Below, piece by piece: positions 14,334 to 48,716 of a stretch of DNA of 64,000 nt. The stretch is from an uncultured Candidatus Melainabacteria bacterium. GTDB taxonomy: Bacteria > Cyanobacteriota > Vampirovibrionia > Gastranaerophilales > Gastranaerophilaceae. The number at the start of each line of letters is the position of its first letter. The first letter of the stretch is position 1. The stretch spans positions 29,496-93,495 of the forward strand of contig CATLDC010000007.1 of the NCBI GenBank assembly GCA_949902595.1, given 5' to 3'. The translations under genes and the position numbers were made by a program. Below the pieces are notes generated by a model. That model did no database searches, was not told where the DNA came from, and saw only the letters and a program-made list of their open reading frames with translations.

Positions 14334-14363
14334 AGCGTTATTAATTTCCAAAATGTGGAATTA
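14334..14363 (+). promoter_or_regulatory. Rightward promoter-like motif, probable native promoter of the flagellin-like gene before prophage insertion; preceded by palindrome TGTAACGATTTTGTTACA (14314-14331)
   Basis: Near-identical to the motif before the autotransporter; TGTGG-AATTAT is in the same register as TGTGG-TATAAT at 55181-55195 (minus strand). Confidence 0.5.
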
Positions 14364-14430
14364 TATAAATATGAGGTACGGAAGCTCAAATATATTACAT
14401 AATTATGTTAAAGGTGTGAATTATTTGATA

Positions 14431-14505
14431 GTTTGAGAAAGGAGCATGAATATCTGGAGTGCTGTTGGGGAGTGTGATTGAGGGGTAAAAAAGAGGTTTG
14501 AGAAA
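14431..14505 (+). repeat. Left-end transposase-binding repeats
   Basis: GTTTGAGAAA at 14431-14440 and 14496-14505, inverse of the right-end TTTCTCAAAC copies. Confidence 0.8.
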
Positions 14506-14627
14506 AAAGTTAAAAAGTATCAAATTAGTATCAATTAATTCCCCCAAAGTAAAAAGGCTGTATGTATGATTATGGTTGTAATACAGGTTTGCCAAGGCTT
14601 GAGGGTTTGGTACTTTTTTGATATTTT

Positions 14628-14785
14628 TTTCGCACCTTTTTAGTTTTCTATTAAAAATCTATTAATTCCTTATTAATACTGGAGTTTTAGCCTATTTTGC
14701 AAAGATAAAAATTTCGCACCTTTTTGCACAAGGTGCGAAATTTTTTAGGCAAAAGGTGCGAAAAAAGGTACGCAAAGGTGCGAAA
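14628..14785. repeat. Array of AAGGTGCGAAA 11-mers near the left prophage end
   Basis: Reverse copies at 14628 and 14712; forward copies at 14730, 14753 and 14775; degenerate copy at 14765; 15-bp inverted repeat spanning 14708-14744. Confidence 0.85.
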
Positions 14786-14915
14786 TTTTTAAGGGATTAA
14801 AACAGGGGTATTATGACTACTATTATTAAACTTGAGGTTATTTGAGCAGGGATAACAAAATGTCCGGAAAAAATGTTTTTCACGAACATTTTTAGGTAGA
14901 ATTTATATAAATATT

Positions 14916-15134
14916 CTAAGAATTATGGTTGGTTACTGCTGCATCGGAAGTATTTAACTCCGCAATTTCTTTCAATATTTTCGAGCATTCTTCAATAATA
15001 TCTGTAAAACTATCGTAAGCCATTGAGTAATTCAGACTTGCGCGCTGATAATTTTCAGCTTTCATCTCTTCAAATTGAGCTTGAGCAGCTAATAATCTAG
15101 TCTCAAGTTCTAGTAATACTATATTATCACTCAT
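14916..15134 (-). CDS. Phage hypothetical protein
   Basis: 72 aa, GGAG RBS, last gene of the early operon. Confidence 0.6.
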   Translation of the reverse strand: MSDNIVLLELETRLLAAQAQFEEMKAENYQRASLNYSMAYDSFTDIIEECSKILKEIAELNTSDAAVTNHNS

Positions 15135-15142
15135 GATAACTC

Positions 15143-15346
15143 CTAATTTAACTCATCAAATTTTTTATCAATAATCGGCTGTAAAACTTTATTAAACCAC
15201 TTTATGAACTCTTTCTGCTGTTCATCTGTTAGATTCTTACAAGATATCCAGCATGGATGATAATTATCAACATTGCCTTTTGCTTTATAACCGATATAAA
15301 ATAACGAACGTTGATGTTTTGTCATAAAATCATAATCCCGCATCAA
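15143..15346 (-). CDS. Phage hypothetical protein
   Basis: 67 aa, overlaps its upstream neighbour in the operon. Confidence 0.55.
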   Translation of the reverse strand: MMRDYDFMTKHQRSLFYIGYKAKGNVDNYHPCWISCKNLTDEQQKEFIKWFNKVLQPIIDKKFDELN

Positions 15347-15542
15347 TGATTAATCTTGATTTAATAACATTCCAATCGATTTCCATACAAGCATTGTATG
15401 CTTGTAGTGTTTCTGTTGAGTTAAGACATACAGTCTGTTGAATATTAGAATATTTATTTTGCATTAAAAATACAGAGAATATAATCAGTGTTGCTGCTAA
15501 TGCAACAATAAAATGGCGTAAATCTTTGTAGTATAGATACAT
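15330..15542 (-). CDS. Phage small membrane protein
   Basis: 70 aa, one hydrophobic segment, GGAGG RBS. Confidence 0.55.
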   Translation of the reverse strand: MYLYYKDLRHFIVALAATLIIFSVFLMQNKYSNIQQTVCLNSTETLQAYNACMEIDWNVIKSRLIIDAGL

Positions 15543-15543
15543 T

Positions 15544-15861
15544 TTAACCTCCTAAGTTAAATAATTTGAGTTGTACATTATTTGTGGTTTTATTCAAATT
15601 TTTCTGTAGTTGCCGTTCTTGCCAAGCTTTGCGAGCAATTTCTACTAACTCGTAATAATCAATATGGTCAGTTTCTGGTGGTAATTCCGGCTCATCAGCA
15701 AGAGAACCGCAACCCCAGGGACAAAAATTAGGATAAGTATGCCTAGAAGTAGTAACAATTCTTCCGCATTTTGGACACCATTTAGATACCATTAGCCTGT
15801 CCCTCTTCTGCAAGACGTTTGAACTCATCATCAAGTGTTCGCTGGCCTTCAACAGGTACAT
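15544..15861 (-). CDS. Phage zinc-ribbon protein (true start probably ~15792)
   Basis: WCPKCG...FCPWGCG cysteine motifs. Confidence 0.6.
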   Translation of the reverse strand: MYLLKASEHLMMSSNVLQKRDRLMVSKWCPKCGRIVTTSRHTYPNFCPWGCGSLADEPELPPETDHIDYYELVEIARKAWQERQLQKNLNKTTNNVQLKLFNLGG

Positions 15862-16189
15862 TTTTGGCTTTGATTTTTGTTTTTAAGACTTCTCTGACAA
15901 ATTTTTCACTTACACCTATAGTTCTTGCGATATCTTTAATTGAGCGCGCAGAATAGTCATATTTTTCTCTAATATATTGGATTTGTATATTCATCCAAGG
16001 ACGTGCCGGAACCTGAATAATATTACCCTGCATGTATACCAGCAGTTTGATGGCAGTTTCGCTTCCGCAAAGCTCAAATACATCCTTCATAGTCTGTGTA
16101 GGCATATCATCTACGGTCAAGTCTGCCGTTTTGATTTTAAGACGTCCTACCTGAATTTCTTCAATGTCTGTTTCTGTAAAATTAATCAT
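15782..16189 (-). CDS. Mor/C-like transcription activator
   Basis: ELCGSETAIKLLVYMQGNIIQVP followed by HTH SIKDIARTIGVSEKFVREVL. Confidence 0.8.
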   Translation of the reverse strand: MINFTETDIEEIQVGRLKIKTADLTVDDMPTQTMKDVFELCGSETAIKLLVYMQGNIIQVPARPWMNIQIQYIREKYDYSARSIKDIARTIGVSEKFVREVLKTKIKAKNVPVEGQRTLDDEFKRLAEEGQANGI

Positions 16190-16221
16190 TTTGACCTCAT
16201 CAGTTAACGCATAACGCTAAG

Positions 16222-16249
16222 ACAAGCTGCGGAGGGATTTGCAGCTTGT
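16222..16249. terminator. Hairpin between gam and mor
   Basis: ACAAGCTGC-N10-GCAGCTTGT. Confidence 0.45.
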
Positions 16250-16259
16250 TTCGGTCTTT

Positions 16260-16808
16260 TTAAGCTTCACCTACTCCTGCAGCAATACGCGCAACATCAG
16301 GTGTAATGGTTAGGCTGTCTTTTGTAACAATTTGTGCTCCGATTTTGGAGAGAGTTGCAGCATCCAACTCACGGAGCTTGTCTTTGTCGATTTTTTTATC
16401 AATCTTAAGGCAGAAATCAAGATTTGCAGCTTCAATTGATTTAATTACCACATCAACATTGTTTTCAAGTTTTACACTTGAAGACACTCTGTAAGCTACA
16501 GTGCCATAGTTAAGAGTTTTACTGCGTTTATTGAGGAAAGAATCCTTATTTTGTTCACAGAAGCGCGTTATTTCGCTAGAAATTCTTTTCTGTTCTGATA
16601 CAATTTCTTCTGATTCAGCGGTATACTTTTCCTTGATATTGTTAATTTCCAGGGTCTGTAAGCCTTCAATTCTGGATTTTTCAATCTCCAGATTGCCCAA
16701 TTTTCTGATAGCACAATCCACGTCGTGCCAGTTTTTGTAAATACTTTCTTTTTTTGTTCTACCCATATCTGTCAACCTTTGGTCGGAACACATTTTGTAA
16801 TACTGCAA
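16260..16808 (-). CDS. gam: Mu Gam-like host-nuclease inhibitor
   Basis: Coiled-coil N-half, RFCEQNKDSFL.KRSKTLNYGTVAYR, and C-terminal KIDKDKL...ITKDSLTITP typical of Gam. Confidence 0.85.
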   Translation of the reverse strand: MQYYKMCSDQRLTDMGRTKKESIYKNWHDVDCAIRKLGNLEIEKSRIEGLQTLEINNIKEKYTAESEEIVSEQKRISSEITRFCEQNKDSFLNKRSKTLNYGTVAYRVSSSVKLENNVDVVIKSIEAANLDFCLKIDKKIDKDKLRELDAATLSKIGAQIVTKDSLTITPDVARIAAGVGEA

Positions 16809-16860
16809 GCCGGTTTTGTATCTACAGGTGTTCCCTTGCTGTAGTACTACCGGCCGGATG

Positions 16861-17100
16861 TTATCCTACAAGTTGTAAAACGCAGTTTGATAAGTCTTTA
16901 ACAGCCTTTTGATACCCTATCTCTGCTGCAATATGGGTAGTAATCTGGCTTATCATTTCAGGATTGTAGAACAACGCTTTTGCGTAATAGTTTGTTAAAA
17001 AAGATTTTCTACTCACGGATTCTGAGAAGAGCTTTTCTATCCTGTTTTTTGTATCAACTTTGGTATTTTCAATCTTAAAAGATGGGGATTTGTCGTTCAT
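16861..17100 (-). CDS. Phage hypothetical protein
   Basis: 79 aa, in the early operon. Confidence 0.55.
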   Translation of the reverse strand: MNDKSPSFKIENTKVDTKNRIEKLFSESVSRKSFLTNYYAKALFYNPEMISQITTHIAAEIGYQKAVKDLSNCVLQLVG

Positions 17101-17103
17101 AGT

Positions 17104-17550
17104 TTATCTTCCTTTCTGCATTTCTGTAATAGCTTTAATTAACTTGCTTACATCGTTGTGTTTGATGAATTTAAGACTGTCTTTGCCTGTAATTTTTTTG
17201 CATATAATATCTAACCCTTGCGCTCTGGCTTCGTCCGTTTTTGCGTAGGAGACATCAAACCACATAGCCTCAATTTTTCTAAGCTGTGCAGGTGTTGCCA
17301 TTCCACTTCGCCATCCAAGATTATTGTATTTGTATTGCCTCATCTTTGTAGACGCTTTAGGCTTAAATACACCCGCTTCATTTGCTTTATCGCGCAAATT
17401 GTTGAGAAAAATATTTGCATCATATGTTGATAAATCTTTGCTGGATTCTGCCCCGTTATACTGCGATAACATTTCTCTGTATGTATCTTCATCAATTGCA
17501 AGAAGCTTGCGCATATATCCGATTTGTTGTCGTTGTGCTGATGTTGACAT
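17104..17550 (-). CDS. GemA/DUF1018-like regulatory protein
   Basis: RKLLAIDEDTYREMLSQYNGAESSKDLS and ATPAQLRKIEAMW. Confidence 0.8.
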   Translation of the reverse strand: MSTSAQRQQIGYMRKLLAIDEDTYREMLSQYNGAESSKDLSTYDANIFLNNLRDKANEAGVFKPKASTKMRQYKYNNLGWRSGMATPAQLRKIEAMWFDVSYAKTDEARAQGLDIICKKITGKDSLKFIKHNDVSKLIKAITEMQKGR

Positions 17551-17561
17551 TTTATCCCTTT

Positions 17562-18497
17562 CTATAATGCAATCTTTTTATACGCTGTCTTAACCATATT
17601 GATGTTTAAATTCTGTTTTGATGTAATAAGAATATCGTTAGTTCTTTTAATAAGGTTGAAAAGATGTCTGGTATTGCTTTTACAGAGTCTATAAAAAGTC
17701 TGCTGTATTTCTAAATTACTTTCTGGAAAAACTTGGACAACAAGTTTTTGAGAATCTTCCAAAGTGAGCGAATCAAGCTTTTCAATATATCCAAGCCTGT
17801 TGGTAACATACGAAAATTCTCCCTGCATCCGTACAAGATTGCCGGAAAGTCTTTCTGTTCCAACGAATAATAATCCACAAGTAAAATCACATCTGTCATG
17901 AATTTTTCTTAAAGTTCTAAAGCAAGAACTATTTATATTTTCAGCTTCATCAATAATAATTAAATATTCACTCCCCTTAAGTCTTTCTACAAGTATTTCA
18001 GTAAATTCTTGACAAGACATATTGTTATTCATTTTTAAACGCAGAGCTCTACCGATAAGCATTAAAAGAGTACGTGTTGAAATTTTTTCATCTGGGTCAA
18101 TAACTATAACTCCGGAATGTGTCTGCGCATAATTTTTAATGGCTGTTGTCTTACCTAATCCAGAAGAACCAACACAAAGACCTATTTCTGAATTTAACTG
18201 ACAGGCACGTGCAACATTAAAAAATTTATTAGCTACTGAAGTTTTAACAAAGTTGAAACGAATTTTCTTATGAGATTTGCGTTCTCTTGACATTTGAAGA
18301 AACTTTGATAAAACAGCTTCAAACTCGTCCAGATTGCCGTCATATTTTTCATTAAGGTAAGTATTTACTGCTGATTGTGAATAATCCAGCTTTTTGGCCA
18401 AATCTTTCTGCGAAATTTCTTGTTCTTGTATTAGTTCTTTTAACTCGTTTAATAGTTGTTGATTTTGTCGTCTTTCCTCTGTCATTTTTCCCTCCAT
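17562..18497 (-). CDS. MuB-like transposition AAA+ ATPase with N-terminal HTH
   Basis: ISQKDLAKKLDYSQSAVNTYLNEKY; Walker A GSSGLGKTT; Walker B IIIDEAE; directly follows the transposase. Confidence 0.9.
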   Translation of the reverse strand: MEGKMTEERRQNQQLLNELKELIQEQEISQKDLAKKLDYSQSAVNTYLNEKYDGNLDEFEAVLSKFLQMSRERKSHKKIRFNFVKTSVANKFFNVARACQLNSEIGLCVGSSGLGKTTAIKNYAQTHSGVIVIDPDEKISTRTLLMLIGRALRLKMNNNMSCQEFTEILVERLKGSEYLIIIDEAENINSSCFRTLRKIHDRCDFTCGLLFVGTERLSGNLVRMQGEFSYVTNRLGYIEKLDSLTLEDSQKLVVQVFPESNLEIQQTFYRLCKSNTRHLFNLIKRTNDILITSKQNLNINMVKTAYKKIAL

Positions 18498-18529
18498 TTA
18501 TTTTTGTAACAGGCGTACAAGCTTGTATT

Positions 18530-20635
18530 TTAACAATAAGCTTCATTTACTCCGTTTGCGATTAAGTAATCAAATTCTGAATAATCAATTTCATATTCTT
18601 CTTTCTTAATATTTATCAAGTTTTCATCTTCAATGTATGTAATTTCGTAATCTGTATCAGTAGTGACTACAGGTTTGAGCTTTTTATATGTATACTGGGG
18701 AGCTGTCGCGTACATCTGTTTTAAAAGCTTGTTCATCGGATTTATCGTGTTCTTTTCTAGCTTTGCAAGATTTCTTGCCTGGAACTTAAACTCTTCGTAA
18801 TCTTTTGGAACATCAGAGGCCTTAGCAAGAGCATTAACACTTGTTGTCCGCTCTGCACGGCAAATATAATCCCCCTGTAAGCTGTAAACTTTTACGTAAG
18901 ACAAATCAAAGTAACTGTATTTGATAACACAATTGTCATTAAGTCCAAAAAGTCTTTCATTCCAATAATAAGTGTCAAACAGTTTAACCCCATTGCGCTG
19001 GATTTTACGAACTTCTTCCGCCATCATTAAATCATCAAGTTCGTCAATATTTATGCCTTCACCGCGAGCCTGTTCAACATACTCTGCAATTGTAAAGTTT
19101 TTGTCTTTGCGACATCGGCATTGTCTGTAATAAGTGTTTAACCACCCATCAATGCTCATTTTTACTTCATCTATAGTAGGGACGTAATCCCCGGCAAGAA
19201 GTACATGCTTTTTTTCGTTCCTCTTTGTATGAGCAGGCTTGTTGCTAATACCATTACCAATGTATGTATTCCAGAGCTTTGCATAAGATTCAGTAAACTC
19301 TTTAAAAAATCTCTCAATAATTTTTGCACGCCCGTTGTATGCCTTTGAAAAATAGGTTTTTATCCCGAGCTTTTCATACAATCCGGCCGTAGAAGGTGTA
19401 AGCGAGGCCGTCACTCCTGACTGTATAGCAGCACTGCCGTTTGTAAAAAACTTGCTTTTGAAGGCTTTACCATTATCCAGCTGAACCCATTCTGGTTTTT
19501 TGCCCATATATATAATTGCGTTGCGAAGAGCTGAAGCTATACTTTGCGTATTTTCTGTAAGCATAATATCGTATCCGACTAAATCTTCAGTTGCGACATC
19601 AAGAAACGCAACTAAGCTAGCCCTGCAAGGCTTGCCATTGAACGGATTTTGCACCATAAAGTCAAGAGTATGACCATCACCAACAATCCATTGAGCAAAT
19701 TCTATTTTGCTATAATCTCTCTGAATATATGGTAAAGCTTTGTCTCTACAAGCTTTTAAGCCTTCTCTGGCATAAATAACATGCGCATAATAATTTCTAG
19801 TAACATACTGCCATACGTGGCGATAAGCGCTGTATGAGTGTTGAACTTCTCCCATGCTATTTAACTCAAGCCCGATAAGCTGATATGCCCGTCCAAGAGC
19901 ATAACAGTTCTGGTGGAGCATGTATTTCAAGAGCAAATATTTTTCAATCTGTGTAAGTGAAGATTGAAGCCGGCTTTCACTGCCAAATCCATAGTTAGGG
20001 ATTAGGGCGTAAAAGTCGCGATTACTTTCTTTATAAATCTTTTCATACCTATAAAGCGTACTAAGCCCAACTTTACCGATTTTATTTAAAATATCTTTAT
20101 GGATAAACCCGTTATTATATAATTCTATAAAATCTTTGTCAGATTTGGTTTTATTACCCTTGCTGCTATTTCTAAACTCCTGCAAAGCATATATCAAATC
20201 GACTTTTGCTAGAGCCTTTTTCTTTTCACTTTCAGGAGTGATTCTGGGAAGTTCTTCTATATTATTGAGACCAAAAAGAGAGAGAGCTTGTTCCTGCTCT
20301 GTCGTAAGTGCAACAGGTAAGCTCTCTTTAGACATGGTAGGAGATAAATCTTTTTCATCTGCCTTGGATAATAAAGAAAGACCGGCAGCAGGATTCAATG
20401 CTATAGAATGTGTGTGTTTATTATTGCTGCCGGGCGCACTATTAGAAGAAGAAATTAAATCTTGTAATTTTTTATTAAGAGAGCTGACAAGAATCTCGTA
20501 ACGTGCTCCGCCGTTACCGTCTACTATGCGGTATTCGACTTTGCCTTTAGAGCACCAAATTTGAAAAGTTCTTTCGCTCTTCCCGCTCAATTCCGTAAGC
20601 TGTTTTATTGATATGTATTTAACCGCTTTAGCCAC
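18530..20635 (-). CDS. MuA-like DDE transposase (GTG start)
   Basis: N-terminal Mu-type HTH; catalytic GDGHTLD, LDNGKAF, RAKIIERFF; C-terminal Mu transposase-like region; uninterrupted 701 aa. Confidence 0.93.
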   Translation of the reverse strand: MAKAVKYISIKQLTELSGKSERTFQIWCSKGKVEYRIVDGNGGARYEILVSSLNKKLQDLISSSNSAPGSNNKHTHSIALNPAAGLSLLSKADEKDLSPTMSKESLPVALTTEQEQALSLFGLNNIEELPRITPESEKKKALAKVDLIYALQEFRNSSKGNKTKSDKDFIELYNNGFIHKDILNKIGKVGLSTLYRYEKIYKESNRDFYALIPNYGFGSESRLQSSLTQIEKYLLLKYMLHQNCYALGRAYQLIGLELNSMGEVQHSYSAYRHVWQYVTRNYYAHVIYAREGLKACRDKALPYIQRDYSKIEFAQWIVGDGHTLDFMVQNPFNGKPCRASLVAFLDVATEDLVGYDIMLTENTQSIASALRNAIIYMGKKPEWVQLDNGKAFKSKFFTNGSAAIQSGVTASLTPSTAGLYEKLGIKTYFSKAYNGRAKIIERFFKEFTESYAKLWNTYIGNGISNKPAHTKRNEKKHVLLAGDYVPTIDEVKMSIDGWLNTYYRQCRCRKDKNFTIAEYVEQARGEGINIDELDDLMMAEEVRKIQRNGVKLFDTYYWNERLFGLNDNCVIKYSYFDLSYVKVYSLQGDYICRAERTTSVNALAKASDVPKDYEEFKFQARNLAKLEKNTINPMNKLLKQMYATAPQYTYKKLKPVVTTDTDYEITYIEDENLINIKKEEYEIDYSEFDYLIANGVNEAYC

Positions 20636-20971: not shown

Positions 20972-21850
20972 ATGGATATAGCAAATCAATTAAAGAGAAT
21001 AAGACTGGAAAAGGGGCTTTCACAAACTGAATTAGCTTCCTTACTTAATTCTACGCAAAAAACTATATCATTTTGGGAAAAAGGAGTAAATATTCCAAGC
21101 AAGGAAAATCTAACATTGATTTGTGAAAAATTAAACATTAGTAAAAGTTACTTTCAAGACAATAATATTATTAAGATTGGCTCTAGGCTCAAACAATTAC
21201 GAGATTTTATGGGTGATAGTCAAGATTCATTTGCCAAAAAACTGGGTATTTCTCTCAAAGCATATTGGAACTATGAAAATGATGAGAGAAGCATGCCATC
21301 AGAAATGCTATACAACATTATAAGATTATATGGTATTAATACTAATTGGCTTCTAACCGGAGAAGGTGAGATGCTATTATCTAAGTATAATGTTTTAGAA
21401 AGCATAGCTTCTGGTGATGAAAAAAGTTTTTGTTATGACCTTCCTGTGCGTGGAGAAGTTGAAGCTTCATGCGGATATGGTGTAACGGTTTACAATGAGG
21501 AACAAACTGCGACATACAGCGTAAGTAAAAAATTTATTGATGATTTAAAAATTAATCCTAAAACATCAGAAATAATTTTTGCCCGCGGTGATTCAATGGA
21601 GAGCACTATATACGGTGGTGACAGCGTACTTGTGGACAAGTCCAAAACGGATATTCAGGACGGAGTAATATACTGCATAAATCTTGACGGTCAAATTATG
21701 ATTAAAAGGCTTCAAAAAATTGCCAGAGATATTGTAGGGCTTATTTCTGATAACCCGAAATACAAAACAAGAGAAATTGACCTTAAGCACGATTCAGACA
21801 TTTTTAAAATCATTGGCGAAGTGCGCTGGTGGGGAAGAATAGCTAAATAA
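20972..21850 (+). CDS. Phage repressor: two XRE HTH domains plus S24 autopeptidase
   Basis: LKRIRLEKGLSQTELA, IGSRLKQLR...SQDSFAKKLGIS; ARGDSMESTI (Ser) and IKRL (Lys); divergent from the transposase. Confidence 0.9.
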   Translation: MDIANQLKRIRLEKGLSQTELASLLNSTQKTISFWEKGVNIPSKENLTLICEKLNISKSYFQDNNIIKIGSRLKQLRDFMGDSQDSFAKKLGISLKAYWNYENDERSMPSEMLYNIIRLYGINTNWLLTGEGEMLLSKYNVLESIASGDEKSFCYDLPVRGEVEASCGYGVTVYNEEQTATYSVSKKFIDDLKINPKTSEIIFARGDSMESTIYGGDSVLVDKSKTDIQDGVIYCINLDGQIMIKRLQKIARDIVGLISDNPKYKTREIDLKHDSDIFKIIGEVRWWGRIAK

Positions 21851-25458: not shown

Positions 25459-25570
25459 TTTTACATCATGCGGAGTAGTTCCACTGTCCAGCCCCCGAAC
25501 CTGATTCACCCCTTTTACACCAGGCGGAGTAGATGGACGGTCGGGCCTACAAACCTGATTTACCCCTTTT
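25459..25570 (-). repeat. Interspersed repeat locus 1: two tandem 54-bp A units
   Basis: Minus strand GGGGTAAATCAGGTTTGTAGGCCCGACCGTCCATCTACTCCGCCTGGTGTAAAA then GGGGTGAATCAGGTTCGGGGGCTGGACAGTGGAACTACTCCGCATGATGTAAAA. Confidence 0.9.
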
Positions 25571-25657
25571 GTAAATTTCACTTTGATGGTGACCTGTAAA
25601 TTTTATCCAAGTTAGTATGTTGATATTTTGTCACCCGACCATTTCTCTACGTACGTC

Positions 25658-25717
25658 TTACACTTCACTTTCAAACTTGTAGTCTTACCTACTAATTGGA
25701 AAGTCGGTTGTAAAACC
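25658..25717 (-). repeat. Interspersed repeat locus 2: B hairpin module
   Basis: Minus strand GGTTTTACAACCGACTTTCCAATTAGTAGGTAAGACTACAAGTTTGAAAGTGAAGTGTAA. Confidence 0.85.
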
Positions 25718-25765
25718 CTTATTAATTCCTTATTAATTCGTTTCAATTGCCCCCTTAAATTGTTT

Positions 25766-27316
25766 TCAGGAATAATCCATCCAGCTCGACCTTGCTCCTC
25801 GTAAATCGCCTGTAAACCGCCTTAGATTCAATCCTTGGCTAGAAAGTATATTATTACTGCTTTTTGCGGTGTATACCTCCGGTTTTTGAAAATCTTTTTT
25901 CCCAGAAGAGATATGATTAGCAAGCGCAAGTGCCATACATCGGTCAGCGTGGGCGTCCGAGGTGCCGTCGTCGTCAAATCTTATGTTTCCGGCTTTAGTT
26001 ACGAATTTTTTGACAGAATGATAGTCGTCAATATCAACCTGCGGAGTATCAATATCAATAATGATGTTTCTGTCTTCCACAGCGGAATAGAGCTGATAAA
26101 GTATTTCGCTTTTGCTTGCATTTGTGAACTCAAAAGTTTCAACCTTGCTCAACCCGAAATCAATCTGCGCATCCTCGCCGAGCTGCGCACCAATACCGGT
26201 TGAGTCAACGCAAGCGCGACGGAGGTTCGGGAGTTCTAAGAACTTGTAAAGTATTGCTTTCTGGTCGCGGAACCGCATTTTTTTGAGCTCAATCTTGTGA
26301 CGTAAGAACTTGATATTGTTGACTTTTTCCAGAATAGAAAGTACTGATAAGTGTTTTTTGCGCGCAATATCGTAGCCAAGATACAAGTCCTTGCAACCTT
26401 TAAGCGATTCAAAATCCATAAGAATATTAGGCTCTTTTATTGCATTAAGCATTTCATAAGTAAGAAAAGCGCTAGCCTCATCCACAGCTTCGCAGCAGTA
26501 TTCCTGCCTCCATGTGTAGTCGTCTGCGCAGTCATTGCGTTCGTTTCCCAGCCATTCTTCCCGTTCTTCTTTCGTGGTCGGACGTCCATAAATCTTGTCA
26601 ACAAGCCCCTCTTCAACCGCAAGATGAATTGGCGTAATATGGTGTCCCCAATTAAGTTTACCGTCCCTGCAACGCTTTACAAACTGATAATACAAACAGC
26701 TCTGCCCGTTGTGGGTAGATAAAATACGCAGCGGATAACCCCACGTAATACAAGGTTTTGCAGCTTTCCAAAGCGCGTTCTGGTCTGAATGAAACGCAAA
26801 TTCATCCAATACAACCTTACCGCCTTTTGAACGGAACTGGGTTGGATTGGATGACAAAGCGTTGATTCTGGCGCCGTTTTTGAACTCCAGAGAAAGCGCT
26901 TTGATATCCTTTTTCTCATCAATAACGACCTCTCCGAGGTTCTTGACAGCAGCGTTGAACATCTTTGCCCATTTTTCGCAATACTGGATGTATTCCTTTG
27001 CTGCTGTGATATCAGCAGATGAGAACCACACATCAACAGGCTGGTTGCGGACTTTTAATGTTAATGCATCACGTACATCCTCATAGGACTGGATGTAGGT
27101 TGCACCGATACGGCGGGATTTTTCCCAGATTTTGATACGGGAGTCGTCTTCCAGCCACCGGCACTGATAGGGAAGGAAAAAAGCGGGTGTTTTTTCAACA
27201 GGCGGAGTAGTTCCACTGTCCAGCCTTTTACACTTCACTTCCAAGCCTGTAGTTTTACCTACCGATTGGGAAGTCGGTTGTAAAACTTCATTTACCCCTT
27301 GTTGGACTGCTTCCAT
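25766..27316 (-). CDS. Terminase large subunit (Mu gp28-like)
   Basis: FLPYQCRW, EKSRRIGAT, VVLDEFAF, STHNG, LGYDIARKKH, HADRCMALALA. Confidence 0.92.
   Translation of the reverse strand: MEAVQQGVNEVLQPTSQSVGKTTGLEVKCKRLDSGTTPPVEKTPAFFLPYQCRWLEDDSRIKIWEKSRRIGATYIQSYEDVRDALTLKVRNQPVDVWFSSADITAAKEYIQYCEKWAKMFNAAVKNLGEVVIDEKKDIKALSLEFKNGARINALSSNPTQFRSKGGKVVLDEFAFHSDQNALWKAAKPCITWGYPLRILSTHNGQSCLYYQFVKRCRDGKLNWGHHITPIHLAVEEGLVDKIYGRPTTKEEREEWLGNERNDCADDYTWRQEYCCEAVDEASAFLTYEMLNAIKEPNILMDFESLKGCKDLYLGYDIARKKHLSVLSILEKVNNIKFLRHKIELKKMRFRDQKAILYKFLELPNLRRACVDSTGIGAQLGEDAQIDFGLSKVETFEFTNASKSEILYQLYSAVEDRNIIIDIDTPQVDIDDYHSVKKFVTKAGNIRFDDDGTSDAHADRCMALALANHISSGKKDFQKPEVYTAKSSNNILSSQGLNLRRFTGDLRGARSSWMDYS
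27191..27300 (-). repeat. Interspersed repeat locus 3: A unit with nested B module, in frame in TerL
   Basis: Encodes GVNEVLQPTSQSVGKTTGLEVKCKRLDSGTTPPVEK ahead of TPAFFLPYQ. Confidence 0.9.
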
Positions 27317-27756
27317 TACTCACCTCCGCGTAAAAATTTATCCACAGATAATAAGATATCTGTATCGACATTTTTGTTTTCCTGTAAATCTTCTTCCAGG
27401 TGTTCGGCAATTTCCCGTGCCTCAAAGTTTTTGAGTTTAGGGAGTTTGTCAATCATTTTGGAGATAAAGTTCATTGTTGAACGTTCCGGAATCTCACCGG
27501 TCTCATGGAACTCTTCAATAGCTTTTGCAGTAACTTTGTTCAAAAGTTCATATAAGCCTGTATAGCAGGCATATTGTGAGCCGAGAAACTTTCGGCGTTT
27601 CTCGTCCCAGTTACCTTCTTTTTTCCAGTCGCCGAGGGTTTTGTTGGTTATGTTGAGCGATTTTGCAATCGCAGATACAGGCTTTTGCTCCTCAACATAC
27701 ATCTTCTCGGCAAGGCAGTAGTATTGTTCCTTTTTGCCCATGCTAGCGTTCCCCAA
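27316..27756 (-). CDS. Putative terminase small subunit (DUF1804-like HTH)
   Basis: AEKMYVEEQKPVSAIAKSLNITNKTLGDWKKEGNWDEKR; stop abuts the TerL start. Confidence 0.75.
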   Translation of the reverse strand: MGNASMGKKEQYYCLAEKMYVEEQKPVSAIAKSLNITNKTLGDWKKEGNWDEKRRKFLGSQYACYTGLYELLNKVTAKAIEEFHETGEIPERSTMNFISKMIDKLPKLKNFEAREIAEHLEEDLQENKNVDTDILLSVDKFLRGGE

Positions 27757-28045
27757 GTTCTTTTTTTAGCGTATTAATACGCTTTTGAAGCTCAATTAAT
27801 TTTGTTTTAACGAGCAATAGCTCATCTCCACATTGTTCGATTTTTTCCGCTTCCAGCTCATCAGGGGAAGCAAAATACGGGGAAGCATAGCCTTGAAGTT
27901 CAGTGATAAGGCGCATTGCTTTGAGTTCGCACTCCCGATACTCCTTCTTTGCGCTCTGGAGGTCTATTTGCATTTGCATAATTAACGGATTCATCTTTTG
28001 CAACCTTTCTATATGTTCTCCTTGCCCTTTCTCATATACGGGCAC
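27743..28045 (-). CDS. Phage coiled-coil hypothetical protein
   Basis: 100 aa, overlaps neighbours on both sides. Confidence 0.6.
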   Translation of the reverse strand: MPVYEKGQGEHIERLQKMNPLIMQMQIDLQSAKKEYRECELKAMRLITELQGYASPYFASPDELEAEKIEQCGDELLLVKTKLIELQKRINTLKKELGER

Positions 28046-28254
28046 CAGAGGTTGTTAGTAATTTCTGTGTCGATTTTTTGCAGATAACTCATTTGGAGCG
28101 TATTTTGTTCAATCATTGTTGATAGTAGCTTGAAGGTTTGGCCAATAATCTCGTTCATCTGTTTTGTTGTGGACTGATGATACAGATAAAAAATCAGAAA
28201 TGTCACTCCACTTGAACCTGCAAGTTTTAAAAATTCAATAATTCCATCCGGCAT
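28009..28254 (-). CDS. Small membrane protein, holin-like (BhlA/XhlA type)
   Basis: One N-terminal TM segment (GVTFLIFYLYH) followed by a coiled segment; GAGG RBS. Confidence 0.5.
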   Translation of the reverse strand: MPDGIIEFLKLAGSSGVTFLIFYLYHQSTTKQMNEIIGQTFKLLSTMIEQNTLQMSYLQKIDTEITNNLWCPYMRKGKENI

Positions 28255-28272
28255 AGTTTAACCTCTTTTGTC

Positions 28273-28380: not shown

Positions 28381-28399
28381 ATCACCTTGTTTACAATCT

Positions 28400-28687: not shown

Positions 28688-28698
28688 GGAGGCAAAAA

Positions 28699-34560: not shown

Positions 34561-34581
34561 GGTAATGGAAAGGAATTAAAA

Positions 34582-34992
34582 ATGGAAAATACAAACAATT
34601 TAACATCTTTTACATCAGGCGGAGACGGATTGCCATCAAGTTTAACTCCACCTTTTGCTCCGTTATTTGATACGGATAACGCAATTACAAAGCTTGACGA
34701 ATACAAAGAAGTAAGACTCGAAAAGAAATCTGATATCGTTGAATTTACACTTCCATCCGGCAAAAAAGTTGAGATGGATTTGTCTAGGTTCAAAATCAGA
34801 ACGATTATGAACGCAAGAGCCTGTGCTCAAGGCGGATTCAAGACCACTCTTTACATACTTGCAGATATCTGTAAATTTAACGGACAGACTGTTACAGTAC
34901 CGGAAATGGACGAATGGGACGGTTACGACCTTTTGGCTCTTGAAGAGGAATGGGATAAAGCTCGTAATAATATCCCAAAGCACCAAGTATAG
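34582..34992 (+). CDS. Tail assembly chaperone (short form); -1 frameshift extends it to 35123
   Basis: Between tube and tape measure; C CCA AAG slippery site at 34974-34980; -1 frame reads SIADVVFFAHFTGWSKAEIYDMSFDEY. Confidence 0.8.
   Translation: MENTNNLTSFTSGGDGLPSSLTPPFAPLFDTDNAITKLDEYKEVRLEKKSDIVEFTLPSGKKVEMDLSRFKIRTIMNARACAQGGFKTTLYILADICKFNGQTVTVPEMDEWDGYDLLALEEEWDKARNNIPKHQV
34608..34656 (-). repeat. Interspersed repeat locus 10: variant A unit, antisense and in frame in the chaperone
   Basis: Minus strand GGTGGAG...AATCCGTCTCCGCCTGATGTAAAA; shares AATCCGTCTCCGC with locus 12. Confidence 0.7.
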
Positions 34993-35112
34993 CTGATGTT
35001 GTATTCTTTGCCCATTTCACCGGCTGGAGCAAGGCAGAAATCTACGATATGAGCTTTGATGAGTATAACGCCCTCCAGGACGGAATGTTGGAAATTATAA
35101 GAGAACTCAAAG

Positions 35113-37173
35113 ATGGCAGATAATCTTACTTTAAAACTTGTATTGAAAGCCAATGACGGCATGAGCGGAGTAGTCCGCCAAGCCGTCCGTGCTTCTGATG
35201 CAGATTTTGAAAAGCTCCAACGCAGCCTGAAGGATACCGCAGCCGGGTTTGAAGATTTCGGGAAAAAAGCAGGTATTGCAGGAGGTGCACTTACTGCGGC
35301 CTCTGGACTTAATGCTAAGCTTGCCGGAGACTTTGAAGAAGGGATGAATAATGTTTCAACGCTCATTGACACAAATGTTGAGTCTCTTGGTGATATGTCA
35401 AAAGCTATTCTTAGTATTGGAAAGGATTCTCCGAAAGCAATCAGCGATTTAACAGAAGGCCTATATTCTATACGTTCAGCAGGGATTGACGCTTCTGAAC
35501 AGTTCAATGTTTTACGCGGTTCTGAAAAACTTGCAGTCGCAGGACTTGCAACGACTGCCGAGGCCGTTGACATTTCAACATCTGCAATCAACGCTTTTCG
35601 GCTCAAGGGCGAAAAATCAGCCAAAATGTACGATATGCTTTTCAAAGTCGTAAAATACGGTAAAACCAATATTTCAGAATTTGCGCAGGGTTTTGGCTCT
35701 GTTGCCGGAGTTGTGGCATCCGCTGATATCAAGCTTGATGAGTACTCTGCTGCTGTCGCTGCAATGACCACAACCGGCGTAAAAGCCAACATTGCTCATA
35801 CCCAGATGAAAGCTGTTATTGCAGGCTTGTCCCGTGCTACCGATGACCAGGTAAAAATCTTCAACAAACTCGGCGCAAAATCTTTCAAAGACCTGATTCA
35901 GAAATCTGGAGGTTTGGTCAACGCTCTAGACAAAATTAAGACAGCTGTAGGCGGAGATGAGGCTAAAATCATTTCGCTTGTAGGTTCTGTTGAGGCCTAT
36001 AACGCAGTTATGTCACTTACTGGTGCAACAAACAAAGTCTATCTTCAGACTCTTGATGATATGAGAAATGGCGCAGACTCATTGAGCGAAGCTTATCAAA
36101 AGCAGGTATCAGGATTTAATAATCAGATGAAAATTTTAGGCAACCAATTCCAGGTACTTGGAATCAAGTTTGGTACAGGTTTGCTCCCTGTCTTAAAAAG
36201 TGCAGGAAATGTACTTAAAGGTGTTCTTGCTTTTCTCGACAGAATGCCTGAAGGGCTTACAAATGTTTTATCTATTACAGTTGCTGGTACTGGTGCTGCA
36301 TTGCTTGGTTTAAGCGGGATGTCATTTGCTATATCAGGTGCAATAAACGGATTTAACAACATGCTCTGGTTAATAAGGCAAGCAGACATTTTGATGTGGG
36401 GGTTTTCAGGGAGAATAAGTGTCGGTTTAGCAGGCATGCAAGCCGGGCTCCTTAAATTAATTCCAGCTATCCAGAAAATGGGTATTGTTATGAAAGGATT
36501 TAATCTTATATGTGCTGCAAATCCTCTTGGGCTTGTTATTGCACTCATTGGAGCTGCGGCCTTTACCGTTATGAAGTTCTGGAAACCTATAACCGGATTC
36601 TTTCGCGGGTTCTTTACGGGTTTACGAGAAGGTCTGGCTCCTATCACTCCAGCTTTTAAGCAAATTGCAGCTGCTGTTAAGCCTGTATTTGATTGGGTTA
36701 AAAAGCTTCTAAGCCCTATTAATAGTGCAGGGAAAGCTAGCGAAGATTTCGGGCATAAACTAGGAAAAGCAATTGGTGATGGAATTACTTGGTGCACTAA
36801 ATTAATCGGAAAGCTATGGGAGGTTGTTACTCTTGGCGGGCGTATTAAATTTGGCAATAAGAACGATGTATCAGGTTTTGTCAATGGCTCGCATGCTCAA
36901 GGTTTGGCGCGGGTTCCGTTTGATGGGTATATTGCAGAGACACATAAGGATGAATCAATTTTAAGTGCTCCGGAGGCGCGGGAATGGCGGAATTACAAGG
37001 CTGGTGGAAACGGCTCCCAGCCGATTGTGCTTAATTACAGCCCTAAGATTGAGGGCGGTGCGGGGCTTGACGAAGCTAAAATGCTTGCGATTCTCAAATC
37101 CAATGCACAAGAATTGGTACGGATACTTGAGGGTGTCTTAAGACGAAGAGAGGCCAGGTCTTATGGCTATTAA
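35113..37173 (+). CDS. Tail tape measure protein (TP901-like core)
   Basis: FEEGMNNVSTL, ISDLTEGLYSIRSAG, VVKYGKTNISEF, ANPLGLVIA; ends GSHAQGLARVPFDGYIAETHKDE. Confidence 0.9.
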   Translation: MADNLTLKLVLKANDGMSGVVRQAVRASDADFEKLQRSLKDTAAGFEDFGKKAGIAGGALTAASGLNAKLAGDFEEGMNNVSTLIDTNVESLGDMSKAILSIGKDSPKAISDLTEGLYSIRSAGIDASEQFNVLRGSEKLAVAGLATTAEAVDISTSAINAFRLKGEKSAKMYDMLFKVVKYGKTNISEFAQGFGSVAGVVASADIKLDEYSAAVAAMTTTGVKANIAHTQMKAVIAGLSRATDDQVKIFNKLGAKSFKDLIQKSGGLVNALDKIKTAVGGDEAKIISLVGSVEAYNAVMSLTGATNKVYLQTLDDMRNGADSLSEAYQKQVSGFNNQMKILGNQFQVLGIKFGTGLLPVLKSAGNVLKGVLAFLDRMPEGLTNVLSITVAGTGAALLGLSGMSFAISGAINGFNNMLWLIRQADILMWGFSGRISVGLAGMQAGLLKLIPAIQKMGIVMKGFNLICAANPLGLVIALIGAAAFTVMKFWKPITGFFRGFFTGLREGLAPITPAFKQIAAAVKPVFDWVKKLLSPINSAGKASEDFGHKLGKAIGDGITWCTKLIGKLWEVVTLGGRIKFGNKNDVSGFVNGSHAQGLARVPFDGYIAETHKDESILSAPEAREWRNYKAGGNGSQPIVLNYSPKIEGGAGLDEAKMLAILKSNAQELVRILEGVLRRREARSYGY

Positions 37174-37933
37174 TTTACAAACAATTTTTGATAGAACCGA
37201 AAGTTTGGATTTTTTTAAAGAAGTCAATTATACTCATCAGCAGGGTATAATAGGCAAAGCTTCTCTTGCAGCAGGGGCGGAAAACCTTAAAACTTATCCG
37301 CTTACAGTTAAACTTCATCATTCTTTCTGCAACCCGCAGGAAGTTATTGATGAAATCGAGTCAAGAATTGCTGGAAAAGAGATTCTTGACTACTTTCAGG
37401 GCTCGGTTTATATCGGAAAATATGTTCTTCAGCACCTTAACGTTGAAGTTTTAGAACAGATTGACGGGCATATAACAGCCTGTATCATCAATCTTGAGCT
37501 TCTGGAATCCGGCGAAAAAGAAGAAAGCTTTGTACAGCAGGTTGCTGATACCACGGCAGAAGGGCTCGAAAGTGTTAATAACACTATCTCCGGCAGGGCA
37601 AAAACTTTTCTTGCTTCATCCAATCCTGTTGTAAATTTTGTCAAAAAACAGGCAGAGAATATCAAAAACCAGATGTTTGACGCGGCGCTTGATATTCTTG
37701 AAAACGGCGATATTGAAGCGTTGCCGGAAATTGGAAAATTGACAGTCCGTGATATTGCTCGGAGCATTGTTTCTGATATCGAGAACCAGGGAATAACAAG
37801 TGTAGTAAGTATTACAGAAAAATATACATTAGAGGTGAATGTTCCTGGCTTAAGCCCGGAAGAATCTGAGCGGTTGGTCGATGCGCTCAAAGAGATTCCG
37901 AGGAAGATAATGGATAGTGCTCTGAGGGGGTAA
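37163..37933 (+). CDS. Phage tail protein (P2 gpU-like N-terminus with extension)
   Basis: Follows the tape measure; LTVKLHHSFCNP, YIGKYVL, INLELLE. Confidence 0.65.
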   Translation: MAINLQTIFDRTESLDFFKEVNYTHQQGIIGKASLAAGAENLKTYPLTVKLHHSFCNPQEVIDEIESRIAGKEILDYFQGSVYIGKYVLQHLNVEVLEQIDGHITACIINLELLESGEKEESFVQQVADTTAEGLESVNNTISGRAKTFLASSNPVVNFVKKQAENIKNQMFDAALDILENGDIEALPEIGKLTVRDIARSIVSDIENQGITSVVSITEKYTLEVNVPGLSPEESERLVDALKEIPRKIMDSALRG

Positions 37934-38042
37934 ATAAGGCTTGTAGGTTAGACAGTGGAACGACTCCGTCTATTGTGAAAGGGGTAAATTAGGTTTGGAG
38001 GCTTCAAGTCCGACTACTCCGCCTGATGTGAAAGGGGGTAAT
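37926..38042 (+). repeat. Interspersed repeat locus 11: two tandem A units flanked by GGGGGTAA
   Basis: GGGGGTAAATAAGGCTTGTAGGTTAGACAGTGGAACGACTCCGTCTATTGTGAAA GGGGTAAATTAGGTTTGGAGGCTTCAAGTCCGACTACTCCGCCTGATGTGAAA GGGGGTAAT then ATG. Confidence 0.92.
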
Positions 38043-45970: not shown

Positions 45971-45987
45971 CGAATGAGGATTTTACT

Positions 45988-46422
45988 ATGCAAATGTCGA
46001 AAAACGGAAAGAATATATTAAAGAAGCTTGAAGGACTTAAATTATGCGCATATAGATGTTCTTCTGGAGTTTGGACGATTGGTTATGGGCATACTGGAAT
46101 TACAGTAAAATCCGGTGATATTATTACAGAAGCAACAGCCAATAAGCTTTTTGAACAAGATATCAAGTTCTTTGAAAATGCTATAAATACTTTGGTTACA
46201 GTTAAATTAAATCAAAATCAATTTGATGCGCTGGTTTCCTTTTGTTTCAACATAGGAATTGGAAAAGACGGATTTGCCGGTAGTACAATGAGAAAGTTAC
46301 TGAATTGTGGAGAATACGCAGCAGCTTCAGAGCAATTTTTGCGTTGGGTTTATTCTAATGGCAAAGTTTCGGATGGTCTAAGACGTAGAAGAATGAAGGA
46401 GCGTGAGTTATTTTTATCTTGA
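45988..46422 (+). CDS. Endolysin, GH24 phage lysozyme
   Basis: LKKLEGLKLCAYRCSSGVWTIGYGHT, LNQNQFDALVSFCFNIG, GLRRRRMKERELF. Confidence 0.93.
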   Translation: MQMSKNGKNILKKLEGLKLCAYRCSSGVWTIGYGHTGITVKSGDIITEATANKLFEQDIKFFENAINTLVTVKLNQNQFDALVSFCFNIGIGKDGFAGSTMRKLLNCGEYAAASEQFLRWVYSNGKVSDGLRRRRMKERELFLS

Positions 46423-46439
46423 ATTAAAACTGTTTTAGA

Positions 46440-46466
46440 GGGTTATTAATATATTATTAATAACCC
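46440..46466. terminator. Hairpin after the lysin
   Basis: GGGTTATTAAT-ATATT-ATTAATAACCC. Confidence 0.5.
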
Positions 46467-46646
46467 CGATTTTGCTTAGTTCAGTTCACAAGAAGGGGGT
46501 AAATGAGCCTTATGGAGCTTACAGGGTGCTTAGACGAAGGGTATAATTCAAGAGGTGTAGTTGAATGATATCTAAGATTATAAAAACAATCTTCTACTTT
46601 TAGGACTATCATTTAGATGTAGAAGGGTTTTGAGTCCAAAAATTTT

Positions 46647-46777
46647 TTTCTCAAACCTCGTAACAAATTTTCTCAAACTCCTAGCAAAGTCGGTAAAAAT
46701 AGGGTTAAGTCCTTGCAGGATAAAGGATTGAGTTAAAATTTAAAATTTCTCAAACTCCTAGCAAACTTTTCTCAAAC
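46647..46777 (-). repeat. Right-end transposase-binding repeats
   Basis: TTTCTCAAAC at 46647, 46669, 46746 and 46768 (two pairs, each 22 bp apart). Confidence 0.88.
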
Positions 46778-46826
46778 CTCGAGGCACGTTACAAAAGGCT
46801 CAAACCCTTTGATAGCTATGCTTTTC

Positions 46827-46841
46827 GGGGGGGGGGGGGGG
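46827..46841 (+). repeat. G15 homopolymer upstream of the flagellin-like gene
   Basis: 15 consecutive G ending 39 bp before the ATG. Confidence 0.9.
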
Positions 46842-46880
46842 CAGCTCTAGAGGCTAGTCATTATGCTTTGAGGAGGTTGT

Positions 46881-48716
46881 ATGAATATTAATACAAATCT
46901 CTCCTCACTGATTACACAATCTTCGCTTAAAACTTCCACTCTTAAACTCAATCAAGCTATTGAGCGGATGACAACTGGCTGCAAGATTAATCACGCTAAA
47001 GACAATGCAGCCAATTATTCAATCAGCAATAATTTTTCTACAAAGATTGGTGCTTATCAGGTTGCGGAAGACAACGCCATGATGGGGTTGGATTTGATAA
47101 ACACGGCAAGCGGAGCGTTGGAGCAGATGTCTGACAGGCTGGCGCGGGTACGGGCTTTGCAGGAACAGGCAATGAATAATACTTACGGAAGCCGGTCTAT
47201 AGATGCAATTCAAAGCGAAGTAGACGCGATTGTTGACGAAGTTCAGAGGCTTTATGATACAGCCGAGTACAATGGTGTAAAGCTTTTTATGGGGACTGAT
47301 AAAGCTGAATGCACTGCTGATTTGATGATAAAAATTACTCCACGAGATGTTTCTTCAATGGAAAGTGTTGAGAGTCTTGATGAGAACGTGAAAATAACTT
47401 CTGGTTCGTATTCAGTATCAACAGCAGAAGAGCTTCAAAAGATTTCGACTATGACAAAGAAAAATTTGGTTGGGGAAGATGTAGAATTTGTGCTTGCAAA
47501 CGATATTGACCTTTCTGCTTACTCTTCCGGTACGGGCTGGGAGCCTGTTTCACTAGGTTGTACTTTCGATGGTAACGGGCATAAGATTTCTAATTTGTAT
47601 ATCAATGATTCCACTATAACGGGTGCGTTGTTTATAAAGTATAACAATCGGCCAAAGATTAGTAATTTGGGGGTGGAGGATGCGCATGTTACTGCAATGT
47701 ATGCGTCAGGGCTGGTCGATTCTGCCGAAAGCTTGTATAATTGCTATATTACAGGTGAAGTTAAGGCGGTTGGGAATAATATAAATGTAAATGTCGGACT
47801 TATGGCAAGGGCTGTGCATTCTGCTTCTTATTGTTATTCCAAAGGTGCTGTAAGTTATAAAGGTAATGTCGCCGGTCTCTTTGGGGACGTATTAGAGGAG
47901 ATGAGAAATTGTTATTCTATTTCTGATGTAACATGTACCGGCTCTAGGAGGAGTTCTGGCGGGGCTGGAGGTCTTGTTTCAGATTTATCATCTGCTGCTG
48001 TTTCTGATTGCTTTTTCTCAGGAAATGTCGACGGAGGCATCAGCTCTTGTGTCGGAGGATTAATACGGGCTTCTTATGGCCCCTCTAGCATAACAAATTG
48101 TTACTTTGCAGGTAGTTTAACCAAAGGTTATAACTTCACAGGAACTCTGGTCGGATTTTCTTCAGACACAACACTTACAAACTGTTGCTCATTAACGAAG
48201 AATACATCTATTACAGAGCTGATTACTGATTACGGCGGTAATACATTAAACGAATGTTATAACAAGGCCTATGACGGCACAGTGCCATTTACGGCAGAAG
48301 ACCTTGTACCCGAAGGTGCTGAGCCTGAAAAAGACTATACAAGCCTGGATTTTCAAGTCGGGATAAATAGCGGCAAAAATTCTACTATGAGTTGCAGCAT
48401 AGCTTTTTCAATGAGCGAGTTAAACATGCTCCGGAAGATTACAGAGGAAGGCAATCTGGAAAGGATTGACAAGATGATTTCAAAGGTGTCTGCCAAGCAG
48501 ACCGAGTTCGGGGCGGCTCAAAATCGTCTTGAATCAGCGCTGGAAGAAATTAGCATTCAATACGAAAATCTTGTCTCTTCTCGCTCAACGCTTCAGGATG
48601 CTGACATAGCAGAAGTGTCGAGTGAATACATACGTCAGCAGATATTGCAGCAAGCCTCTGCAACGCTTATGGCTACTGCTAATCAGGCTCCCGCTATCGC
48701 GCTTCAATTATTATAA
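46881..48716 (+). CDS. Flagellin-family protein with a central GLUG-like beta-helix domain
   Basis: N-terminal NINTN...IERMTTGCKINHAKDNAA; C-terminal FGAAQNRLES...DADIAEVSSEYIRQQILQQASATLMATANQAPAIALQLL; centre LANDIDL...FDGNGHKISNL...GGLV. Confidence 0.85.
   Translation: MNINTNLSSLITQSSLKTSTLKLNQAIERMTTGCKINHAKDNAANYSISNNFSTKIGAYQVAEDNAMMGLDLINTASGALEQMSDRLARVRALQEQAMNNTYGSRSIDAIQSEVDAIVDEVQRLYDTAEYNGVKLFMGTDKAECTADLMIKITPRDVSSMESVESLDENVKITSGSYSVSTAEELQKISTMTKKNLVGEDVEFVLANDIDLSAYSSGTGWEPVSLGCTFDGNGHKISNLYINDSTITGALFIKYNNRPKISNLGVEDAHVTAMYASGLVDSAESLYNCYITGEVKAVGNNINVNVGLMARAVHSASYCYSKGAVSYKGNVAGLFGDVLEEMRNCYSISDVTCTGSRRSSGGAGGLVSDLSSAAVSDCFFSGNVDGGISSCVGGLIRASYGPSSITNCYFAGSLTKGYNFTGTLVGFSSDTTLTNCCSLTKNTSITELITDYGGNTLNECYNKAYDGTVPFTAEDLVPEGAEPEKDYTSLDFQVGINSGKNSTMSCSIAFSMSELNMLRKITEEGNLERIDKMISKVSAKQTEFGAAQNRLESALEEISIQYENLVSSRSTLQDADIAEVSSEYIRQQILQQASATLMATANQAPAIALQLL

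Follow-up and report, generated by a model that had tools for sequence, protein, structure and literature searches.

A Mu-like prophage lies between a flagellin gene and its probable promoter in an uncultured member of the Gastranaerophilales

What becomes of a flagellin gene when a prophage comes to lie between its start codon and the promoter that probably served it? This question is raised by a stretch of 64,000 nucleotides (nt) from an uncultured Candidatus Melainabacteria bacterium of the Gastranaerophilaceae (assembly GCA_949902595.1, contig CATLDC010000007.1, positions 29,496 to 93,495), referred to here as the window, in which a Mu-like prophage of 32,379 bp (14415-46793) interrupts the 5' leader of an intact gene for a flagellin of 611 amino acids (aa; 46881-48716, plus strand). 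Our preferred explanation, to which the sequence comparisons given below lead us to assign a probability of about 0.72, is that a Mu-type insertion split the flagellin leader from a promoter module upstream and that the gene is most likely silent or very weakly expressed in the lysogen. The host genome comprises 2.1 Mb in 41 contigs and is 99.8% complete; positions elsewhere in it are given as contig:position.

Both junctions of the insertion can be read directly. To the left, ...ATGTT is followed by AAAGG (14410-14414) and then immediately by the phage terminus, which reads TGTGAATT... / TGTGAATTATTTG... (TGTGAA...) from 14415; to the right, the phage ends in ...CACGTTACA (...GTTACA), with its last base at 46793, and a second AAAGG (46794-46798) follows. 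The element has TG...CA termini, and the AAAGG on both sides is a 5-bp target duplication. The insertion point falls in the flagellin leader, 53 nt past the promoter module and 82 nt ahead of the ATG and, since motA (13427-14200) reads leftwards on the minus strand and the flagellin gene rightwards on the plus strand, the phage sits in a divergent motA/flagellin intergenic region. The original prediction, whose junction letters and count of 15 G (G15) proved correct when both junctions were read, had placed the prophage in the leader between a promoter motif and the flagellin ATG. This placement stands, but the distance at the rejoined site, from TGTGGAAT to the ATG, is 143 nt and not about 130; intact paralogues with a run of 11 G (G11) have 139.

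The uninterrupted form of this locus was found as well. An exact-protein look-up of MotA led to a conspecific contig (L270, from Logan SRR29841302; 96.6% nt identity over 6 kb) in which motA, the module, ...TTGTTAAAGG-CTCAAACCC, G11 and CAGCTCTAGAAGCTAGTC follow each other in this order, with a single AAAGG and without the phage; this contig is a natural empty site. Moreover, the rejoined flanks of the window (14300-14414 plus 46799-46883) aligned gap-free across the junction with four uninterrupted paralogue upstream regions, at a mean column identity of 87%. The exact 24-mer of the empty site had no match in the JGI metagenome contigs.

One or both of the lysogen junctions were found in at least nine other assemblies, including ERR3199550, ERR3199628, ERR3199638, ERR3199645 and ERR3199696 and, from GenBank, GCA_948543355.1, GCA_948714845.1, GCA_948848305.1 and GCA_948931655.1. 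This recurrence bears on the concern that the junction is an assembly artefact, or that phage and flanks entered together as one virion-length piece of DNA carrying a foreign flagellin. Upstream regions are indeed repeated among the flagellin paralogues, and in another conspecific genome (locus L023 in genome G114; 95-96% nt identity) window position 14282 is linked to 48735 through 55 unrelated bp, with promoter, phage and flagellin missing together. The block so defined (132 bp, the phage and 1,936 bp) measures 34.4 kb or 106% of the phage, with flank sizes like those of Mu virion DNA. Misassembly is nevertheless excluded, because the longest exact match between the flagellin 5' region and any paralogue is 32 nt and the junctions recur in so many other assemblies, and integration of the block as a whole is ruled out by the contig L270, which has the cassette beside motA without the phage. 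We therefore give this explanation, in either form, practically no weight. The same contig implies that the cassette predates the phage. Since L023 lacks the cassette, including its left part (pre-module spacer, module and the first 53 nt of the leader; 14283-14414, plus strand), and no close copy of the flagellin occurs elsewhere in that genome, the flagellin cassette is itself strain-variable, i.e., a presence/absence polymorphism. No conserved cassette-boundary sequences or terminators were found at flagellin 3' ends, and no terminator was seen between the stop codon of this flagellin and the following gene.

Near its ends the inserted element carries a decamer, GTTTGAGAAA, which occurs six times in the window (0.25 expected) and nowhere away from the phage ends. 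Its copies are inverted: the two at the left end (14431-14440 and 14496-14505; plus strand) lie within the terminal 91 bp, and the four at the right end (46647-56, 46669-78, 46746-55 and 46768-77; minus strand) within the terminal 147 bp. They are read as putative transposase-binding sites. Among the proteins encoded between these repeats are a MuA-like DDE transposase of 701 aa (18530-20635, minus strand; Pfam Mu-transpos_C PF09299 at 46.1 bits, DDE_2 PF02914 and rve), an adjoining MuB-like AAA+ protein with a helix-turn-helix (HTH) domain (17562-18497, minus strand; Pfam AAA_22), Gam (16260-16808; phrog_491) and a repressor-like protein with two HTH domains and an S24 peptidase domain in Pfam (20972-21850, plus strand). 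Matches in PHROGs further include a portal (phrog_113), a MuF-like minor head protein (phrog_220), a head protease (phrog_976), a major head protein (phrog_1005), a late activator, a large terminase, sheath, tape measure, baseplate and tail fibre. The final late gene before the right end encodes an endolysin (45988-46422, plus strand; phrog_7, Phage_lysozyme) and is oriented at the flagellin gene. No integrase or recombinase match was found among the scanned prophage open reading frames (ORFs), which were part of the total.

A contig from a sample of another study (L278, Logan SRR34956994) carries an identical endolysin and the phage end ...GTTACA joined to unrelated host DNA; the position of the end is therefore fixed and the phage mobile. 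The presence of MuA, MuB, a target duplication with TG...CA ends, inverted end repeats, unrelated insertion sites and a head module with Gam supports the classification of the element as a complete Mu-type transposable phage. This agrees with the Mu type originally assigned to it, for which Gam, the 5-bp duplication and the Mu-like head and tail genes speak alongside MuA and MuB. As with the polar mutations caused by bacteriophage Mu, the element combines a MuA DDE transposase and a MuB ATPase with TG...CA ends bearing several terminal repeats, a 5-bp duplication, near-random targets (two sites here) and no site-specific integrase, and a gene appears to have been parted from its promoter. It differs from Mu in its host, an uncultured member of the Gastranaerophilales (Melainabacteria), in a transposase found to be far from catalogued ones, and in its gene order, in which the early operon faces the near end and the genes for terminase, portal and MuF are found on the strand opposite the other late genes; the target AAAGG also does not fit the Mu preference N-Y-(G/C)-R-N. 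Identity of the transposase to its relatives is only about 40-44%, even within the genus, no MuA relatives were found in the viral contig set, and a second MuA-like transposase in this genome (C3:24351-26033) is 37% identical.

To the left of the insertion, on the plus strand, lies the three-part module (14313-14361), composed of TTGTAAC (14313-14319), CGTTATTAA (14336-14344) and ATGTGGAAT (14353-14361). TTGTAAC is followed after approximately 18 nt by (C/G)CGTTATTAA and this, after approximately 10 nt, by ATGTGGAAT, the distance from (C/G)CGTTA to ATGTGGAAT being approximately 13 nt. The motif quoted in the original prediction, ATGTGGAATTATATAAATATGAGG, was located at 14353-14376 and equals the third box. 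In this genome the full module occurs 16 times, preceding at least nine flagellins, flgK, an ORF of 101 aa, three large secreted repeat proteins (one with a borderline Chlam_PMP match), a small membrane ORF and a unit of approximately 90 nt. One copy lies at window positions 5313-5393, ahead of an ORF of 1117 aa (5408-8761) that belongs to the Pmp-like secreted repeat proteins, and others were found at C1:34782, C2:72132, C2:105014, C3:43456, C4:96432, C5:30936, C11:1954, C13:2290, C14:374, C14:24546, C16:29479, C20:9355, C10:95 and C3:179779. Across the genus, 21 of 24 genomes had the module, in up to 12 copies each, and the reversed control pattern gave none. At four genes only 33-45 nt separate TGTGGAAT from the start codon, which therefore leaves no space for another promoter. 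The reuse of the module thus supports a promoter to the left of the insertion, a position that is independent of which sigma factor is assigned to it.

The module is most likely read by a FliA-type sigma factor. A FliA orthologue was identified at C18:12956-13618, its score of 234 bits exceeding the family cut-off, and the geometry TAAC-N14-(C/G)CGTTAT fits sigma-28, with a putative -10 element of CGTTA, not CGATA, in all 16 copies. The module resembles the class-3 promoters of sigma-28 (FliA/SigD), TAAA-N15-GCCGATAA, in its geometry and in its flagellin and flgK targets, and differs from them in carrying a T at the near-invariant A of the -10 element, in an additional invariant ATGTGGAAT box 13 nt downstream and in also preceding genes for Pmp-like surface proteins. 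To our knowledge, the invariant downstream ATGTGGAAT box has no counterpart. Other readings of these letters were considered and set aside: TGGAAT-N5 as a sigma-54 element, which has no conserved GC at -12 across the copies; an NtcA-type palindrome, which was found in this copy only; and ATGTGGAAT as a CsrA site, for which support was missing, as tblastn with B. subtilis and E. coli CsrA gave no hit. A further observation concerns the copy at C5:30936. In the region C5:30885-31030, the module is followed by approximately 90 nt that hold UUCUCCUCCACUCC (CUCCUCC), an intrinsic terminator (GCCGCAACTGATTGCGGC-TTTTT) and no ORF. This unit may represent a small RNA that belongs to the same regulon, and its anti-Shine-Dalgarno stretch could pair with the flagellin GAGGAGG.

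Could the real flagellin promoter instead lie within the 82 bp that the gene has kept, so that the insertion would be harmless? This remnant (46799-46880, plus strand) contains CTCAAACCC (46799-46807), G15 (46827-46841), the CTAGAGGCTAG hairpin and the Shine-Dalgarno sequence (SD) GAGGAGG (46870-46876), ahead of the ATG at 46881. It corresponds to the distal part of a leader common to a subset of flagellins, in which CTCAAACCC, a short hairpin, a G tract, CTAGAAGCTAG and the SD follow one another. The remnant is conserved in the paralogues and across species, as the same leader layout with G9-G13 was found in eight other species of the genus (loci L124-L131; none with the reversed control), and homopolymer tracts are known from inside the promoters of some phase-variable genes, such as Neisseria opc and Bordetella fim. 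However, neither a TGTGGAAT module nor a sigma-70-like site was found in positions 46799-46880, and the phage likewise contains no TGTGGAAT module; the scan of the remnant thus agrees with the original prediction, which took the gene to be cut off from its promoter. Furthermore, the upstream module stands alone ahead of the genes with leaders of 33-45 nt and of the unit resembling a small RNA, and several flagellins, including those at C2:72219 and C4:96477, have the module without this type of leader. A promoter within the remnant is consequently a very improbable explanation.

The G tract deserves separate consideration, as its length differs among near-identical lysogen assemblies (11, 12, 13, 14, 14 and 15 at this junction), although homopolymer lengths from short-read assemblies are unreliable. 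Three intact paralogues and the empty site L270 have a tract of 11; paralogue tracts in this genome lie at C3:179868, C14:266, C14:24438 and C20:9440. The spread could be due to phase variation or to homopolymer assembly noise. In the phase variation of Campylobacter flgR and flgS and of Helicobacter fliP, tracts are likewise tied to flagellar genes, as is the G9-G15 tract described here; those tracts lie inside the ORF, whereas the present one lies in an untranslated leader, where an ON/OFF role is putative. In a consensus fold of five leaders, CCUC...CCC is the partner of the G tract and CUCU that of the SD; as no covariation was seen, the fold is treated as a lead only. Rfam returned nothing near the gathering score for the left junction or the intact leaders. 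Elsewhere in the genome, a run of 65 C occupies the position of the G tract at a contig end (C2:186780-186898), upstream of a flagellin of 620 aa, and is probably a homopolymer artefact of the assembler or sequencer.

For expression of the gene, these features suggest the following sequence of events. A Mu-type phage transposed into the transcribed 5' leader of a single flagellin paralogue and duplicated AAAGG. The SD, the leader remnant and the intact ORF were thereby moved 32.4 kb away, beyond the right end of the phage, and the promoter would now fire into its left end, where a terminator-like hairpin lies at 14722-14740. In lysogens of Mu, Mor/C control keeps the late genes off; Mu insertions have strong polar effects and are excised precisely only in extremely rare cases. 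In the repressed lysogen, the gene is therefore most probably silent or expressed at a very low level. Transcription of the flagellin gene would then be possible only through read-through from the late operon on induction or from a weak outward promoter. The sigma factor, the transcription start site and the silencing are what we infer from the arrangement of the locus.

Such phage-driven transcription is the basis of an alternative in which expression of the flagellin continues but is governed by the phage. The sole candidate promoter is an outward sigma-70-like match inside the right end, CTTACA-18-TATAAT (46518-46547, plus strand), which agrees with the consensus at 10 of 12 positions. Read-through from the late operon could contribute, since the late genes and the flagellin gene are co-oriented, the ORF, SD and leader remnant are intact, and the 12-bp AT-rich hairpin after the endolysin gene (46440-46466, plus strand) has a weak U tail and a z-score of only -1.8, which may make it a leaky terminator. 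Against this alternative, sigma-70-like matches in the scanned stretch numbered four, with 2.7 expected from shuffled sequences, and this one may be a chance match; in lysogens, Mu-type phages keep their late operons switched off, and classical Mu insertions are strongly polar. Moreover, changes in the flagellin within the lysogen lineage are all nonsynonymous (three, with no synonymous change) or located in the leader (two), while the lysogen differs from the phage-free-type allele L261 by 24 nonsynonymous and 47 synonymous codon changes. These changes, together with the drifting G tract, could be weak hints of relaxed constraint. Continued expression under phage control therefore appears unlikely, if less so than a promoter in the remnant.

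Several points weigh against a leader split from its promoter and a silent gene. The outward sigma-70-like site and the weak terminator past the endolysin gene could yield some transcription; the substitution counts are tiny and the tract lengths come from short-read assemblies. A fully intact ORF and the occurrence of the lysogen lineage in many samples would be expected of a gene that is still useful or of an insertion that is simply recent. Finally, the CGTTA of the putative -10 element deviates from the sigma-28 consensus CGATA and makes the sigma assignment uncertain.

The separation of the gene from its promoter would in practice be permanent, since phages of the Mu type use transposition to replicate and are not known to leave by precise excision. 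Prophages that interrupt a host gene or control region are also known from active lysogeny, i.e., the comK prophage of Listeria and the skin and SPbeta elements of B. subtilis. Those elements have site-specific recombinases and restore the gene by precise excision, whereas the present element has a transposase and precise excision is not expected. With transposon ends and a 5-bp duplication, no att core and no integrase among the scanned ORFs, the locus is not a reversible switch of the comK/sigK type. The event is an ordinary Mu insertion mutation, that is, textbook Mu biology in an uncultured lineage. Literature on flagellins of the Gastranaerophilales, and on Mu-like prophages associated with a flagellin promoter, yielded nothing relevant.

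How much would the cell lose? The protein itself is a typical flagellin at both ends, with Flagellin_N (PF00669) at residues 3-139 (97.6 bits) and Flagellin_C (PF00700) at residues 527-611 (65.3 bits), and has a central domain of the GLUG type (PF07581 in relatives); its allele-specific variable region is encoded at 47300-48440. The loss of a surface filament envisaged in the original prediction is not borne out, as this genome has 19 Flagellin_N matches, several of them with near-identical promoter, leader and N-terminus, and the conspecific L023 lacks the whole cassette. About 17 further flagellin genes are still in place, so that the cell does not lose the filament itself, and at most one variable filament subunit would leave the repertoire. 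The repertoire also includes very long flagellin-like ORFs that begin with Flagellin_N, at C1:162442 (2617 aa), C4:96477 (1480 aa) and C20:9712 and C14:23997 (approximately 1056 aa each), and open flagellin-like frames of 4,000-6,148 aa were seen in other species of the genus (genomes G091, G086 and G089).

The silencing may also have been positively selected, for example as an escape from a flagellotropic phage or from antibodies of the host that recognize this variant of flagellin. Many samples contain the lysogen lineage, another conspecific is without the cassette, and flagellin variable domains are hypervariable in the genus; the variable domain of this flagellin had no orthologue above 46% identity, its best match among 98 genus genomes, and only relatives of up to 39% identity in metagenome contigs. 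On the other hand, the ERR31995xx-31996xx samples look like a single cohort with a near-clonal lineage (0-2 nt differences in the gene), so that the prevalence may be due to hitch-hiking. Mu-type phages insert almost at random, 57 of the 98 genus genomes contain MuA homologues (at most 11 per genome), and the same phage was found at a different site elsewhere. Selection for loss is therefore not needed to explain the insertion, and we consider it distinctly improbable.

Two observations on the phage and its left neighbours stand apart from these arguments. Families of direct and inverted repeats of approximately 54-77 nt occur at the junctions of the virion genes (25459-38042), for example 27224-27300 and 28579-28655, which are 91% complementary. 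The early operon of the phage (transposase, MuB, Gam and others; 14415-20635, minus strand) is transcribed towards the left end and on into motA-motB, and on induction it could therefore drive the stator genes or interfere with them. The divergent left neighbour of the flagellin cassette, motA (Pfam MotA_ExbB and MotA_N), is followed by motB (12364-13434, minus strand; Pfam MotB_plug and OmpA). Relatives of this MotA all come from metagenome-assembled genomes of Gastranaerophilales or Melainabacteria from rumen and gut.

Taken alone, the insertion matters little; its main value lies in the natural set of three alleles and in the promoter and leader architecture that it helped to expose. For a single species, three naturally occurring alleles of this locus are available from public data: one without the cassette, one in which it is intact and one in which the prophage splits it. 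With these, metatranscriptomics could test both the assignment of the promoter and the consequences of the insertion, and no culture would be needed. Tentatively, and with more doubt than confidence, the observations could be read jointly: the phage may have hit one unit of an undescribed genus-wide system in which the three-part promoter (TTGTAAC...CGTTA...ATGTGGAAT) and the conserved leader (CTCAAACCC, hairpin, G9-G15 and SD) would control a large, strain-variable set of flagellins that includes the giant ones, with a hypermutable G tract as a switch for each gene and resident Mu-like phages among the forces that edit the set. For many flagellins of gut Melainabacteria, proteins that are visible to the host immune system, the locus brings to light a leader with a G tract and a promoter module that is used repeatedly.

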